DNA from: Fimbriimonadia bacterium
Lineage (GTDB): Bacteria > Armatimonadota > Fimbriimonadia > Fimbriimonadales > JABRVX01
DNA: 64,000 nt
Direction: 5' to 3'
Assembly: GCA_041483895.1 (NCBI GenBank)
Contig: JBGPGO010000007.1
Coordinates: forward strand, 128,001 to 192,000
Shown here: one piece after another, positions 2,065 to 5,031 of the stretch
Position numbering within the stretch: the first letter of the stretch is position 1
How the letters are laid out: each line of letters opens with the position of its first letter
Program-made: the position numbers and the translations under genes
Notes under the pieces: model-generated
Seen by the model: the letters and a program-made list of their open reading frames with translations, nothing else
Database searches by the model: none
Told to the model about the DNA's origin: nothing

Positions 2065-2183
2065 GATGCGACCGGTCTCCTGACCGAGTCGCAGGTTCTT
2101 CCGGGGTCTCCTGACCGGACAAACGACGGGCAGTCAGGAGACCTAAAGAATGGTTGCGACTCGGTCAGGAGACCGGTCGCATC
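2065..2183. repeat. Inverted pair of family-A palindromic elements (TTGCGACTCGGTCAGGAGACCGGTCGCATC)
   Basis: 2065-2118 is the reverse complement of a block nearly identical to 4639-4692; forward copy at 2154-2183. Confidence 0.9.
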
Positions 2184-2234
2184 GCGGGACTAAGCTGAAG
2201 TGGCTAGGGAGATGGGCCATCGAATCGCCAAAAG

Positions 2235-2250
2235 TTTTGACTAGTCAAAA
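2235..2250. promoter_or_regulatory. Perfect 16-bp palindrome TTTTGACTAGTCAAAA upstream of the feo operon; putative metal-responsive repressor site
   Basis: Perfect dyad just upstream of a TTGACC-18-TATACT promoter candidate (2268-2297). Confidence 0.55.
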
Positions 2251-2306
2251 AATAATCTTAGCCGGTGTTGACCAATAGCGCCGTACCCGAATATACTGAT
2301 GGGAGC

Positions 2307-2861
2307 ATGCCACAGATGACGCTTCGTTCGGAAGAGGTCCGGGACCCGCAATGTAAGGCCGAGTGCCGGGATTCCATCGTCGCGATCGTCGGCAACCCAA
2401 ACGTCGGCAAGAGCGTGCTCTTCCATCGATTGACCGGCCGGTACGTCACGGTTTCGAACTACCCCGGAACGACGGTCGAGGTGTGCAAGGGCGGTTGCCA
2501 ATTAAAGGACAAGAGCCTCTGCGTGATCGATACGCCGGGAATGTACGGCCTCAACCCGTTTACGGAAGAGGAGCGGGTGGCCCGCAGGCTGCTGAAGGAG
2601 GCCAAGCCGGACCTGGTTCTGCATGTTGTGGATGCGAAGAACCTGCGCCGCATGCTTCCGCTCACCGTTCAGCTCATCGAGGCCGGCTTCAAGGTCGTCC
2701 TCGTGTTGAACATGATGGACGAGTTAGAAAGGGCCGGCATGTCGGTCAACACGCGCGCCTTAAGCGAGAAGCTCGGAATCCCGGTCGCCCCGACCGCCTG
2801 TATCGTTGGCCGGGGCGTATGCGGGCTGCAGGACATTATCCATGAGCAGCTCCGCTCCTAG
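2307..2861 (+). CDS. feoB: FeoB small GTPase domain protein (split feoB, N-terminal part)
   Basis: GNPNVGKS, VSNYPGTTVE, DTPGMY and NMMDE G-motifs; GGAG before ATG. Confidence 0.9.
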   Translation: MPQMTLRSEEVRDPQCKAECRDSIVAIVGNPNVGKSVLFHRLTGRYVTVSNYPGTTVEVCKGGCQLKDKSLCVIDTPGMYGLNPFTEEERVARRLLKEAKPDLVLHVVDAKNLRRMLPLTVQLIEAGFKVVLVLNMMDELERAGMSVNTRALSEKLGIPVAPTACIVGRGVCGLQDIIHEQLRS

Positions 2862-4407
2862 CCTCGACCTGACCTATTCCCCTGCCGTTGAGCAAGCTAT
2901 TTCTGAGATCGAGGACCATCTGGTCGGCGATTACGGTCTTTCCCGCCGCGCGATTGCGATGCTTGCGCTGCAAGGCGACGAAGAGGTCTTGGAATGGATC
3001 GACGCGCAAGAGGGACACAAGGCGGCAGAGGCGGTTCGAGCCGGCATCGCGAACAACTTGCGACTCGGTCAGGAGACCGGTCGCATCGAGGAGACCGGTC
3101 GGATCCAGCCGGAGAACAACTTGCGACTCGGTCAGGAGACCGGTCGCATCCAGCTTGCGATTTCGATGGAATTGCAGGAGTGGGCCTCGAACGTCGCGGA
3201 CGATGCGCTTTCCACGCCAACCGAGAGGAAGACTCCGTCTGGTGAATGGCTCGGACAGGTGTGTGCTTCGCCGGTCTTCGGCCTCCCGATCTTGGTCCTG
3301 GTCGTCTATTTCGGCCTATACCAGTTCGTTGGCGTCTTCGGCGGCGGGACCGTGGTCAATTGGCTCGAAAACGGGGTGTTCGGAACCTATGTCAATCCAT
3401 ATGTGACGAATTTCTTCGCGGCAATTGTGCCTTGGGAATCGATCCGAATGCTGTTCGTGGGCGAGTACGGCATTATCACGCTTGGCGTCACCTACGCGAT
3501 CGCATTGATCCTTCCGCTGGTCACGTTCTACTTTCTGGTCTTCGCGGTTCTGGAGGACAGCGGCTACCTGCCGCGCCTCGCGATGCTGGTCGACCGGGTA
3601 TTCAAGAAGCTAGGGCTCAACGGCCGCGCGGTGATTCCGATCGTGTTGGGATTCGGCTGCGATACGATGGCAACGATCGTGACGCGGATTCTGGAGACGA
3701 AGCGCGAACGGATCATCGCCACAGTTCTACTCAGCCTCACCATCCCCTGCTCCGCACAGCTCGCCGTAATCATGAGTCTGCTGGCGATGCGGCCCGCGAA
3801 ACTCCACCTGCTGGGTCTATCCATGGCTACGGGCCTGCTGGTTTGGGCATCCGTGCTGGTCATTGTTTTCTTGTTCGCGGGATTCCTCGCCGCGCGCCTC
3901 ACGCCGGGAAAAGCGACGCCCTTCTTCCTGGAGTTGCCGCCCATGCGCTGGCCGAGCTTTGCGAACGTTGTCGCAAAGACGCTCTCACGGCTCCACTGGT
4001 ATTTCCTGGAGGTCTTTCCGCTCTTTATCTGGGCGAGCGTGATGATCTGGATCGGCCAGATCACGGGCCTATTCGCGATCGTCGTCAACGGCCTAGAGCC
4101 GCTTGTCCGGTTCATCGGGCTGCCAAACGAAGCCGCGACGGCGTTTCTGTTCGGTTTCTTCCGAAGAGACTATGGAGCGGCCGGGCTCATGAAGGTCGCG
4201 GGCGAAGGCGGCCTAACCGGCACGCAGATCGTGGTGGCATGCGTGACACTGACGCTTTTCCTGCCATGCGTGGCGCAGTTTCTGATTGTGAAGAAAGAGC
4301 GCGGCTGGAAGATGGCGATCGGGATGGCTCTGACGACCTTCGTGGTGGCAATCTCCGTTGGCGCTGGATTGTCACGACTTCTTGCCGTGTGGACATTATC
4401 ACTGTGA
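2842..4407 (+). CDS. feoB: FeoB membrane domain protein (split feoB, C-terminal part) with an in-frame repeat insertion
   Basis: LEDSGYLPRLA, LGFGC, IPCSAQL, FFLELPP and FLPCVAQF motifs. Confidence 0.9.
   Translation: MSSSAPSLDLTYSPAVEQAISEIEDHLVGDYGLSRRAIAMLALQGDEEVLEWIDAQEGHKAAEAVRAGIANNLRLGQETGRIEETGRIQPENNLRLGQETGRIQLAISMELQEWASNVADDALSTPTERKTPSGEWLGQVCASPVFGLPILVLVVYFGLYQFVGVFGGGTVVNWLENGVFGTYVNPYVTNFFAAIVPWESIRMLFVGEYGIITLGVTYAIALILPLVTFYFLVFAVLEDSGYLPRLAMLVDRVFKKLGLNGRAVIPIVLGFGCDTMATIVTRILETKRERIIATVLLSLTIPCSAQLAVIMSLLAMRPAKLHLLGLSMATGLLVWASVLVIVFLFAGFLAARLTPGKATPFFLELPPMRWPSFANVVAKTLSRLHWYFLEVFPLFIWASVMIWIGQITGLFAIVVNGLEPLVRFIGLPNEAATAFLFGFFRRDYGAAGLMKVAGEGGLTGTQIVVACVTLTLFLPCVAQFLIVKKERGWKMAIGMALTTFVVAISVGAGLSRLLAVWTLSL
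3051..3150 (+). repeat. Family-A element cluster inside the feoB coding sequence (two full copies and one partial)
   Basis: GAACAACTTGCGACTCGGTCAGGAGACCGGTCGCATC at 3051 and 3114; encodes NNLRLGQETGRI twice. Confidence 0.9.
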
Positions 4408-4420
4408 GGTCCGCTCCCGG

Positions 4421-4813
4421 ATGATGACCTGCGCAGGATGCGGCAGACAGTTCAGCGAAAGGGATGCGGACGCCGGCTGTCAGGGGTGCGGCGCGCACGG
4501 AGGCTGCCACCTGATCAAGTGCCCCTACTGCCACTACGAGCAGGCGGCGATGCCGAGATGGGTGGCCAAACTCAAGGACCTGATGACCGGCAAGAAGGGC
4601 AACTTCACACCGCTTTACCAGAACCGCCCGGCGCCTGACCGGTCAGGAGACCCCGGAAGAACTTGCGACTCGGTCGGGAGACCGGTCGCATCCAGCGGAC
4701 CGGTCGCATCGGGGGAGCCAGGCGAACTTGCGACTCGGTCAGGAGACCGGTCGCATCCAGAGCATCCAGAACGGTCGCATCCAGAGCATCCAGAACCGGA
4801 GATACCGGAATAG
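4421..4813 (+). CDS. Cys-rich feo-associated protein (7 Cys) with a repeat-derived C-terminal tail
   Basis: CxxC-x12-CxxC-x5-C-x4-CxxC motif; lies between feoB and feoA. Confidence 0.65.
   Translation: MMTCAGCGRQFSERDADAGCQGCGAHGGCHLIKCPYCHYEQAAMPRWVAKLKDLMTGKKGNFTPLYQNRPAPDRSGDPGRTCDSVGRPVASSGPVASGEPGELATRSGDRSHPEHPERSHPEHPEPEIPE
4635..4796 (+). repeat. Family-A element cluster with short tandem duplications
   Basis: Two full copies, partial GACCGGTCGCATC units and repeated GCATCCAGA. Confidence 0.9.
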
Positions 4814-5031
4814 TGCGTCTCGATCAGCTTCCAAAAGGCGTCGAGGCGACGGTAACCGCTGTTTCGCAAGAAGACGGTCATTGGCGTAAGTTCATGGCAT
4901 TCGGCATCCGTCCCGGCGCTCGAATCACGGTAACCCAGCGCTTTCCGGCGTTTGTCGTCCGAGCCGGCCACACGCAAGTGGCGATCGATCGACAGGCCGC
5001 CGCCCTTGTCACCGTCGAGCCTACCTGCTAG
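4813..5031 (+). CDS. feoA: FeoA family protein
   Basis: LDQLPKG..KFMAFGIRPGARITVTQRFP..QVAID; GTG overlaps the upstream TAG. Confidence 0.8.
   Translation: MRLDQLPKGVEATVTAVSQEDGHWRKFMAFGIRPGARITVTQRFPAFVVRAGHTQVAIDRQAAALVTVEPTC

Follow-up and report, generated by a model that had tools for sequence, protein, structure and literature searches.

Why does one short palindrome recur both between the genes and inside the open reading frames of a feo locus, and do the intragenic copies become part of the proteins? A first-pass annotation of the window (the whole 64,000-nucleotide stretch analyzed here, from a sediment bacterium) had noticed the palindrome at 2065-2183, 3051-3150 and 4635-4796 and read it as a mobile or amplifying element. 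Using the 27-nt core TGCGACTCGGTCAGGAGACCGGTCGCA, we found six copies in the window at three or fewer mismatches where none is expected, and none of 100 dinucleotide shuffles of the window contained a match. We call this repeat family A, and its copies and their surroundings are as follows.

2067..2183, no strand: REPIN-like doublet, two inverted cores plus a 61-nt spacer (from the fold)
2067..2093, minus strand: family-A core, left arm of the doublet, 0 mismatches
2155..2181, plus strand: family-A core, right arm of the doublet, 0 mismatches
2265..2861, plus strand: FeoB G-domain ORF, a separate gene with no family-A copy (FeoB_N, E 7.9e-55)
2842..4407, plus strand: FeoB membrane-subunit ORF, 521 aa, host of the insert (homologs mostly 482-498 aa)
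3055..3153, plus strand: in-frame insert in FeoB, about 33 codons, 99 nt (gap in homologs)
3059..3085, plus strand: family-A core, FeoB copy 1, frame LRLGQETGRI (core search)
3122..3148, plus strand: family-A core, FeoB copy 2, frame LRLGQETGRI (core search)
4421..4813, plus strand: Cys-rich feo ORF, 130 aa, conserved Cys/His domain in residues 1 to ~55
4637..4796, plus strand: repeat-derived tail of the Cys-rich ORF (from reading the sequence)
4664..4690, plus strand: family-A core, G-loop variant, 1 mismatch, read as CDSVGRPVA
4729..4755, plus strand: family-A core, read as ATRSGDRSH
4813..5031, plus strand: FeoA, whose GTG start overlaps the TAG stop of the Cys-rich ORF by one base

The repeat is not confined to this locus, since the core is present in 148 copies on 23 of the 43 contigs of the 3.95-Mb genome. 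Its unit of about 33 nt, (AACT)TGCGAC-T-CGGTC-RGGA-GACCG-GTCGCA-TC, has the ends (AACT)TGCGAC... and ...GTCGCATC and folds into a hairpin whose 11-bp stem carries a single bulged T and closes on a 4-nt loop (-12.2 kcal/mol for a single hairpin, z -5.3). The 3' ATC is conserved in 96-99% of copies and the 5' ACTT in 59-72%. Of the 148 copies, 52 are perfect, 21 among the 62 genic copies and 31 among the 86 intergenic ones. Family A occurs as singles, as inverted doublets almost always in the '-+' order, and as tandem arrays with half copies; adjacent pairs are ++ in 27 cases, -- in 23, -+ in 18 and +- in 2. A CRISPR array was rejected on the grounds of 78 separate clusters, mixed orientation and spacings of 5-132 nt, and DNA-uptake sequences were rejected because those build up by substitution, whereas family-A copies are insertions relative to orthologs. 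Within one hot zone of 32 kb, 25 copies share a single orientation. Across the genome, orientation is associated neither with local GC skew nor with gene-strand bias (Fisher p 0.40 and 0.87 by copy), nor with GC skew over single-orientation clusters (Fisher p 0.79). Target-site duplications of 2-8 nt, sought at every offset around 38 isolated copies, are not enriched. With these features, family A belongs to the REP/REPIN type of palindromic repeats.

The intergenic sequence at 2065-2183, where the first-pass annotation placed the hairpin, holds two copies that make up a single 115-nt inverted doublet, which folds as one long hairpin (-55.2 kcal/mol, z -12.6). Its 61-nt spacer contains an inner inverted repeat (2105-2117 / 2133-2143), and homologous spacers occur, within unrelated flanks, in three further doublets at C8:64371, C6:99567 and C7:121943. 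An Rfam search of the long hairpin returned only sub-threshold miRNA-precursor matches, and plasmids contained no match to the doublet in a distant BLAST search. The doublet sits in the divergent spacer between a molybdoenzyme gene and feoB. Genome-wide, intergenic copies fall into tandem, convergent and divergent spacers in numbers (28/8/6) close to the proportions of the genome's spacers (1878/496/490), so divergent spacers are not clearly avoided.

Inside the feo genes, the first-pass reading of the repeat as LRLGQETGRI in both FeoB copies and as TCDSVGRPVAS and LATRSGDRSH in the Cys-rich ORF was reproduced, and both host ORFs stay open. The claim that copies lie inside feoB holds for the membrane ORF, but feoB is not one gene: it is naturally split into a G-domain ORF and a membrane ORF, as it is in relatives. 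The FeoB insert, read as NNLRLGQETGRIEETGRIQPENNLRLGQETGRI, consists of a full unit, a right-half fragment (3090-3105) and a second full unit, and the predicted peptide across its junction is …NNLRLGQETGRI…. In relatives at 76-80% identity the alignment shows a gap at this site (9 of 9 aligned homologs). In the predicted FeoB structure, residues 77-105 have pLDDT below 50 and lie between helices 59-81 and 96-124. In the Cys-rich ORF, which has no match in Pfam or NCBIfam, family-A sequence makes up a C-terminal extension of about 57 aa; relatives end near alignment column 93. This tail opens with a loop-plus-arm fragment (4637-4652), followed by two full copies with a right half (4698-4710) between them; after these, 24 nt of the element's 3' end are duplicated in tandem (4749-4772 / 4773-4796), with a partial right half at 4773-4781. 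The annotation had the repeat adding peptide to linkers; it does lengthen the ORFs, but not always in linkers, since the Cys-rich copies form a C-terminal extension and some inserts elsewhere in the genome split Pfam domains.

Insertion into genes extends well beyond this locus. Genomes of the same family have contiguous flanks at the insert sites of FeoB, TrmD, Era and Ffh, and relative to orthologs the inserts measure about 68 aa in TrmD, 71 aa in Era and 65 aa in a DnaE2-like polymerase; that of Ffh is 55 aa, with flanks exactly contiguous in relatives. Over these five ortholog-checked hosts the range is about 30-71 aa. The assembly contains just one copy each of TrmD, Era, Ffh and the FeoB membrane subunit; in model bacteria, trmD, era and ffh are essential genes. 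Of 34 host ORFs in total, orthologs support 5 and Pfam supports 14; Pfam matches lie beside or across the copies in 14 ORFs and also in FeoB. Frequently, the inserts are mosaics of family A and other palindrome families.

According to a crude in-house gene caller, on which all genic and intergenic counts rest, 62 of the 148 family-A copies lie in ORFs, 40 of them deep within good ORFs (27-42%), compared with 4074 of 5000 random positions in ORFs. Family A stands apart from other repeats of the same genome: family B has 12 of 75 copies in ORFs (5 deep), family C 6 of 29 (1 deep) and family D 1 of 24 (0 deep), and the deep share is 27% for family A against 3-17% in six other surveyed families. 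The core contains no stop in its forward frames and a single TGA in one reverse frame, which leaves five of six frames stop-free, and 33 nt equal 11 codons. Open frames do not explain the family-A load, since families C and D, also open in five of six frames, hardly ever occur inside genes. The three forward frames are all in use, as first annotated, and in fact all five stop-free frames are. Their use is uneven: among the 40 deep copies, 21 are in opp/2, 8 in same/2, 5 in same/1, 5 in same/0, 1 in opp/0 and none in the stop-containing frame, and frame use is non-uniform at the gene level (p 1.7e-4). The dominant frame, DATGLLTESQV, is the sole acidic one; it is read in TrmD and Era (…DATGLLTESQV…), and the Ffh insert reads …DSVGRPVAS…. 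From this frame conservation we infer that the inserts are probably translated, and the skew to one acidic frame suggests selection acting on the peptide.

The first-pass annotation saw no mobilizer in the window, but a candidate is present elsewhere. By inspecting ORFs between inverted family-A arrays we found an intact RAYT ORF of 178 aa at G000:C12:73415-73951 (L062:1916-2452, minus strand), a positive outcome for the suggested search for a RAYT flanked by the motif. It matches NCBIfam NF047646 REP_Tyr_transpos (85.5 bits against a cut-off of 80, E 3e-24), and its HUH and Tyr motifs, HVH and YMHNNPVRKG, align with those of the genome's seven other RAYT-like genes. Pfam Y1_Tnp does not match it, and phmmer against the PDB gave no matching chain. 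Eight minus-strand copies lie 31 nt from its 3' end, and plus-strand copies, partial and full, lie 67-125 nt from its start; besides the eight-copy array, the inverted arms around the gene are 33 nt long and 88% complementary, with 683 nt between them. In seven of the eight array copies the loop starts with C (TCCGGA as read on that strand), where the main family has A or G, and three also carry a stem change. In total the genome has eight RAYT-like genes, seven above the NCBIfam cut-off, with at least five types of flanking repeat. Six Pfam Y1_Tnp loci were rejected as the family-A mobilizer because each has repeats of another family, and none of family A, on its flanks, and an analogous locus between arrays on contig C11 holds a cupin gene rather than a transposase.

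These observations support the reading of family A as a mobile or amplifying element, with 148 dispersed copies and orthologs that lack the peptide, although mobility itself is deduced from sequence comparison. We consider it likely that this REP/REPIN-type family is spread through single-stranded DNA by the RAYT that lies between its inverted copies on contig C12. TnpA-REP of E. coli, as described in the cited parts of PMC3333891, acts only on single-stranded DNA, needs a mismatch in the stem, cuts at CT and makes tandem BIMEs. In a similar manner, the C12 RAYT would bind the bulged hairpin on single-stranded DNA and cut and join beside it, and such cutting and joining could yield new copies, local arrays and half copies. 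With an 11-codon unit open in five of six frames, insertions into coding DNA would often be non-lethal, and tolerated inserts would probably be read into the protein as additional loops or tails, with selection on the peptide then deciding which persist.

A different account makes family A a fossil, whose spread is past and whose RAYT is domesticated or inactive, the arrays and half copies arising by slippage or recombination between hairpins. Element-end tandem duplications such as 4749-4796 are visible, RAYTs are widely held, in the portions of the literature used here, to be single-copy and vertically inherited, and contigs from eight sediment runs contain no empty-site allele: in runs X1-X7 and X10, where coverage is 2-7x and broken at repeats, no contig joins the flanks of an empty FeoB or Cys-rich site. 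We nevertheless judge this account unlikely, as 52 of the 148 copies are perfect, those in genes are no less intact than those between genes, and the RAYT ORF is intact with its HUH and Tyr motifs kept. Moreover, neither family A nor a close ortholog of its RAYT was found in 30 relatives, none of them from the same genus, which suggests recent expansion. Outside the relatives, an exact 28-mer had no match in public collections of genome contigs and metagenome contigs; a 21-mer had one single-copy match, in an actinobacterium, among the genome contigs (by our estimate about the number expected by chance) and none among the metagenomes. The terminal inverted symmetry of the unit would also suit a MITE moved by a DDE-type IS transposase that recognizes the TGCGAC...GTCGCA ends, an idea that is largely refuted and to which we give very little credence: 38 isolated copies lack target-site duplications, which favors an HUH single-strand transposase, the unit is only about 33 nt, and it is a RAYT that is located between inverted copies.

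Two further explanations concern the intragenic copies and the assembly. If the copies were removed from RNA, or if the host ORFs were pseudogenes, the repeats would not appear in proteins at all; this is very improbable, given that all inserts supported by orthologs or Pfam are in frame and stop-free and that the hosts include the assembly's only trmD, era and ffh. The unused stop-containing frame (0 of 40 deep copies) and the skew of frames to one peptide form a pattern expected only if ribosomes read the inserts. Misassembly of a metagenome bin might be suspected from the contigs that end in family-A arrays (C6:33, C17:50, C23:45-221 and C30:64-192). Logan contigs of run X1, however, cover 2800-3080, 3061-3143 and 3124-3715 with 0 differences, that is, from the flank into FeoB copy 1, across the stretch between the copies, and from copy 2 into the other flank. 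Partial pieces of runs X2 and X3 reach into a FeoB copy, and the contigs of all four runs X1-X4 agree with the window across repeat sites, although none of the X4 pieces listed extends as far as the FeoB copies; the chance of an artefact is therefore negligible. The objections that the first-pass annotation had raised against itself (confinement to this locus, a peptide ancestral in orthologs, misassembly) do not apply, because the copies are dispersed, orthologs lack the peptide and independent assemblies agree.

Intragenic REPs have already been described (Di Nocera 2013; Rickettsia RPEs), and family A is notable for its high intragenic load and its 32-kb hot zone. It is a tentative and rather doubtful possibility that this is an actively spreading REPIN population that breaks the 'extragenic' rule, in which an 11-codon unit almost free of stops allows the RAYT to seed coding DNA and the host keeps mainly the copies in the acidic frame. 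If so, the genome would amount to a natural experiment on how far essential proteins (TrmD, Era, Ffh, FeoB) tolerate insertion, and the one-orientation hot zone would be the footprint of ongoing, local, directional amplification driven by the RAYT. The REP family and its own RAYT form a candidate enzyme-substrate pair from a little-studied phylum, Armatimonadota. As the repeat lacks GTAG, it could be used to ask how RAYTs recognize repeats, and its intragenic load relative to the other families offers an internal comparison of what lets a REP survive in genes. For metagenome bins there is also a practical risk: inserts of this kind, which add 55-71 residues to the sole trmD, era and ffh copies, can lead automatic annotation, domain calling and alignment-based phylogeny astray.

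Among known systems, family A most resembles the REP/BIME/REPIN-RAYT systems, or REPtrons, of E. coli, Pseudomonas and Stenotrophomonas, and no paper in the literature searched joins REPs with its host phylum, Armatimonadota. As portrayed in the cited portions of PMC3333891, PMC3116915 and PMC3337134, REPtrons share with it a short imperfect palindrome in high copy number, inverted doublets with a conserved spacer and a one-hairpin fold, tandem arrays, the lack of target duplication, a RAYT between inverted copies of its own repeat, and several family/RAYT pairs in one genome; the bulged T parallels the stem mismatch that binding requires in E. coli REPs. It differs in having no GTAG tag (borne in this genome by family D), in a RAYT that Pfam Y1_Tnp misses, and in the 27-42% of copies inside ORFs, whereas the repeats of REPtrons are almost wholly extragenic. 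Intragenic REPs of the GTAG and CGTC types are reported by Di Nocera, De Gregorio and Rocco (2013, PMC3733652), whose cited passages place them in frame in known genes as singles, dimers and groups; clusters there encode 20-30 aa and up to 43-82 aa, hosts include DnaE and DnaE2, many N-terminal cases are called doubtful, and several families per genome are considered possible. Family A is alike in its in-frame clusters of tens of residues, its DnaE2-like host and the several families of its genome. As those passages present them, CGTC REPs lack a transposase, carry a CCA tail and have a stem of 8-9 bp whose first pairs are AT. Family A comes with a RAYT of its own, and its inserts are mosaics of several unrelated palindrome families; without an unpaired tag at its ends, it falls outside the GTAG and CGTC (TGTC/CCTC) super-families as delimited there.

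The DDE MITEs (Correia/NEMIS, ERIC, Nezha and QMITE) resemble family A as small non-autonomous repeats that form in-frame fusions, but by the relevant passages of PMC10969869 they are 70-300 bp long, with terminal inverted repeats and target-site duplications, in contrast to a 33-nt unit without duplication. Closest in its relation to proteins is the Rickettsia palindromic element (Ogata et al. 2000, via PMC10969869 and PMC3733652), likewise a selfish palindrome in frame in unrelated housekeeping genes, where it seems not to disturb protein function. Compared by description, RPEs are about 100-150 bp long (about 150 bp in the first report) and each carry a family-specific conserved peptide ORF, and the passages cited describe no mobilizer for them, whereas family A measures 33 nt and has a RAYT. 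Family A therefore works like an RPE and is not a member of that group.

We searched the window with the 27-nt core of the family-A hairpin, TGCGACTCGGTCAGGAGACCGGTCGCA, and found six matches with up to three mismatches, compared with none in 100 dinucleotide shuffles, bearing out the copies that the first-pass annotation had placed between genes, in feoB and in the Cys-rich feo ORF.

Family-A copies and feo genes in the window
2067, minus strand, family-A core (core search)
2155, plus strand, family-A core (core search)
3059, plus strand, family-A core (core search)
3122, plus strand, family-A core (core search)
4664, plus strand, family-A core (core search)
4729, plus strand, family-A core (core search)
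3090-3105, 4698-4710 and 4773-4781, family-A half copies (read from the window sequence)
2265-2861, FeoB G domain (Pfam)
2806/2842-4407, FeoB helical, Gate and C-terminal part (Pfam)
4813-5031, FeoA (Pfam)

The source genome (3,946,788 bases, 43 contigs, 57.9% G+C), in which the window spans C7:128001-192000, holds 148 such cores on 23 contigs, 77 forward and 71 reverse, of which 52 are perfect; a second search gave the same count and a backwards control pattern gave no match. This count, proposed earlier as a check, extends family A beyond the feo locus. The core has no match in 30 relatives (two from its family and 28 from its order, all 96-100% complete), and searches of genome_contigs and metagenome_contigs gave no exact match to a family-A 28-mer. 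For a 21-mer these contig collections gave a single match, about the chance expectation by our own estimate. Twenty-five of the 148 copies (21 plus, 4 minus) lie in a 32-kb hot zone on the window's contig (C7:101,119-132,755; window -26881 to 4755), where six other repeat families have zero or one copy each. Genome-wide, copy orientation is linked to neither GC skew nor gene strand. Short palindromic repeats are unusually abundant in this genome (for example at loci L001, L002-L004, L005-L006 and L065), and a 16-mer census shows at least seven palindromic families of 24-156 copies each.

FeoB is encoded by two ORFs, a G domain (2265-2861) and then a helical/membrane part (2842-4407), which overlap by 20 nt in different frames. 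A frameshift as the cause was rejected, since the split is usual across the lineage: stand-alone membrane parts of 482-498 aa make up most of the 120 best FeoB homologs, and the relatives G001 and G005 also have the two-ORF layout. Named FeoB matches come from Armatimonadota/Fimbriimonadales bins. In the membrane subunit, all nine homologs aligned (closest 76-80% identity) have a gap opposite about 29-33 residues of our genome, and the site is likewise empty in same-family genomes, so that the ortholog alignment suggested in the first-pass annotation does define an empty site. An AlphaFold2 model of modest confidence (mean pLDDT 66.7, 10-row alignment) places residues 77-105 below pLDDT 50 between helices 59-81 and 96-124, which fits a floppy loop. 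Mis-assembly had also been raised, and Logan contigs from sediment run X1 match the window through the FeoB copies with no differences, over 2800-3080 (flank into copy 1), 3061-3143 (between copies) and 3124-3715 (copy 2 into flank); the run with the best coverage may itself be the source sample. Pieces from runs X2 and X3 reach into a FeoB copy, and the listed pieces from X4 end short of the copies. No contig joins across the empty site in runs X1-X7 and X10, at a thin cover of 2-7x.

The Cys-rich ORF (4421-4813) lies between feoB and feoA, and its TAG stop overlaps the feoA GTG by one base. It matches no Pfam or NCBIfam family, and its conserved part (4421-4640; CxxC...CxxC...CH...CxxC) keeps seven Cys and one His invariant across our genome, G001 and G005. 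Orthologs in these two relatives stop about 15-20 residues past the domain, and ours continues for about 57 more in family-A sequence. The ORF may encode an unannotated metal-binding Feo accessory protein.

We compared family A with six other palindromic families of the genome with genes called crudely from codon usage (2,907 ORFs, 84% coding), counting as deep those copies at relative position 0.1-0.9 in an ORF scoring at least 40.

Repeat copies inside ORFs (same crude caller throughout)
Family A: 62 of 148, within 34 ORFs; 40 deep
Family B: 12 of 75; 5 deep
Family C: 6 of 29; 1 deep
Family D: 1 of 24; 0 deep
Family E: 54 of 156; 17 deep
Family F: 21 of 72; 12 deep
Family G: 8 of 55; 2 deep
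Random positions: 4,074 of 5,000; 2,578 deep

Family A therefore falls inside genes less often than chance would predict, but its depletion is far weaker than that of the RAYT-linked families B-D (Fisher p 2.7e-7). Although C and D match family A in the number of open frames, they are almost never intragenic. Among 33 host ORFs plus FeoB, Pfam matches flank both sides of, or span, family-A copies in 15: FeoB, TrmD, Era, Ffh, a DnaE2-like polymerase, two glycosyltransferases (GT2, GT4), KdtA, a HemN-like radical-SAM enzyme, an ADP-forming acyl-CoA synthetase, RACo, an Fe-S/cytochrome c protein, an amidohydrolase, an AMP-binding enzyme and an oligopeptide ABC ATPase. Copies in the remaining host ORFs lie close to one terminus (N or C) and may fall outside genes. 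Empty sites recur in orthologs of these hosts: matches to TrmD residues 29-106 and 181-346 are 18 nt apart in G001, the matching places for Era residues 1-113 and 188-366 are 9 nt apart, those for Ffh residues 1-91 and 147-492 are exactly contiguous, and matches to residues 1225-1262 and 1360-1489 of the DnaE2-like polymerase are 96 nt apart in the relative G002. By tblastn, trmD, era, ffh and the feoB membrane gene each occur only once in the assembly.

FeoB reads family A twice as LRLGQETGRI, and the Cys-rich ORF reads it as TCDSVGRPVAS and LATRSGDRSH, so every forward frame is in use. The core is free of forward stops, with a single TGA in one of the reverse frames, in agreement with the first-pass description of three stop-free forward frames. 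We extended the frame census to the 40 deep copies, which lie in 22 ORFs.

Frames in which deep family-A copies are read
Opposite orientation, frame 2: DATGLLTESQV, 21 copies
Same orientation, frame 2: LATRSGDRSH, 8 copies
Same orientation, frame 1: LRLGQETGRI, 5 copies
Same orientation, frame 0: CDSVRRPVAS, 5 copies
Opposite orientation, frame 0: CDRSPDRVAS, 1 copy
Opposite orientation, frame 1 (stop-containing): no peptide, 0 copies

The five open frames are unevenly used (p 6e-6 by copy, 1.7e-4 by gene), and DATGLLTESQV is the sole net-acidic peptide (-2, versus 0 to +1 for the others, by our own count). Because stops are avoided, frames are kept and usage is skewed to DATGLLTESQV, we infer from sequence that the inserts are translated.

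Flank alignment gives a unit of about 33 nt, (AACT)TGCGACTCGGTC[A/G]GGAGACCGGTCGCATC, in which the 3' ATC is 96-99% and the 5' ACTT 59-72% conserved. Its ssDNA fold is an 11-bp stem carrying one bulged T and closed by a 4-nt loop (-12.2 kcal/mol, z -5.3). Of the 78 clusters, 34 are single copies, 26 are pairs and 15 are triplets, and clusters of four, five and eight occur once each. Adjacent pairs are ++ 27, -- 23, -+ 18 and +- 2, and inverted pairs therefore nearly always point their ATC ends outward. Four doublets, window 2067-2181 among them, have homologous spacers of 61 nt, each containing an inner inverted repeat, and unrelated flanks; the window doublet folds as a single hairpin (-55.2 kcal/mol, z -12.6). 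These inverted doublets with a shared spacer are the REPIN arrangement. Fragments also recur, as right half copies and as a loop-plus-arm piece about 10 nt upstream. No target-site duplication of 2-8 nt was found at 38 isolated copies. The window's intergenic doublet sits between the two copies of a 16-nt direct repeat (2045-2060 and 2198-2213, 15/16 identical) that matches nowhere else in the genome at up to one mismatch. The three sister doublets have no such bracket, and this one may stem from a single duplication at the time of insertion.

Scanning the genome with Pfam Y1_Tnp returned six RAYT-like genes, all flanked by other palindromes and rejected as the family-A mobiliser. By examining ORFs between inverted family-A arrays, we found the motif-flanked RAYT gene that the first-pass annotation had proposed looking for: a 178-aa ORF on contig C12 (73415-73951, minus strand; L062:1916-2452), which scores 85.5 bits to NCBIfam NF047646, 'REP-associated tyrosine transposase' (cut-off 80, E 3e-24), and has no Pfam match and no PDB chain by phmmer. 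Eight minus copies end 31 nt from its 3' end, with C at the first loop position in seven and a stem change as well in three, and partial and full plus copies lie 67-125 nt beyond its start; a repeat search around the gene gave 33-nt arms, 88% complementary and 683 nt apart. In the array at C12:72938-73384 (L062:1439-1885), family-A variants alternate every 45-67 nt with a G-rich unit, GGGTTGGGGAGGGGCCGGAT; the array is open in several frames, giving spurious ORFs of 136-214 aa.

With the NCBIfam model, the genome shows eight RAYT-like genes, seven above the cut-off (the one on C3 scores 79.5 versus 80), plus one 24-residue fragment. The repeats flanking these genes are of at least five types. 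An alignment of the eight shows the HUH (HVH) and Tyr (YMHNNPVRKG) motifs conserved in the C12 RAYT. Its nearest paralog, at 45.5% identity, is flanked by another palindrome, and the 30 relatives have no close ortholog of the C12 enzyme (best 27-32% identical). Excerpts of work on E. coli TnpA-REP describe action on ssDNA only, a required stem mismatch, cleavage at CT and tandem BIMEs in vitro (PMC3333891). By analogy, the C12 RAYT would be the enzyme that spreads family A and generates its arrays and half copies.

Family A shows the defining features of REP/REPIN-RAYT systems that were tested. The tags of the GTAG and CGTC REP super-families, as excerpted from PMC3733652, are absent from it, and no paper in the library searched links Armatimonadota with REPs. 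The inserts in TrmD (L019), Era (L027) and Ffh (L031) are mosaics in which family A is joined to, and brackets, other palindromes of the genome (for example CCCTCCCCCGCAAGCGGGGGAGGG and GTGTCGGGGTTCAC...GACCCCAACAC), and thus resemble BIMEs but lie inside genes. REPs within genes, including DnaE and DnaE2, are already known from the same excerpts, where intragenic dimers encode 20-30 aa and clusters 43-82 aa (PMC3733652), and Rickettsia RPEs are the classic in-frame palindromic inserts in the portion of PMC10969869 drawn on here. Because the REP/REPIN-RAYT features are present and both intragenic REPs and RPEs appear in these excerpts, family A is not new in kind.
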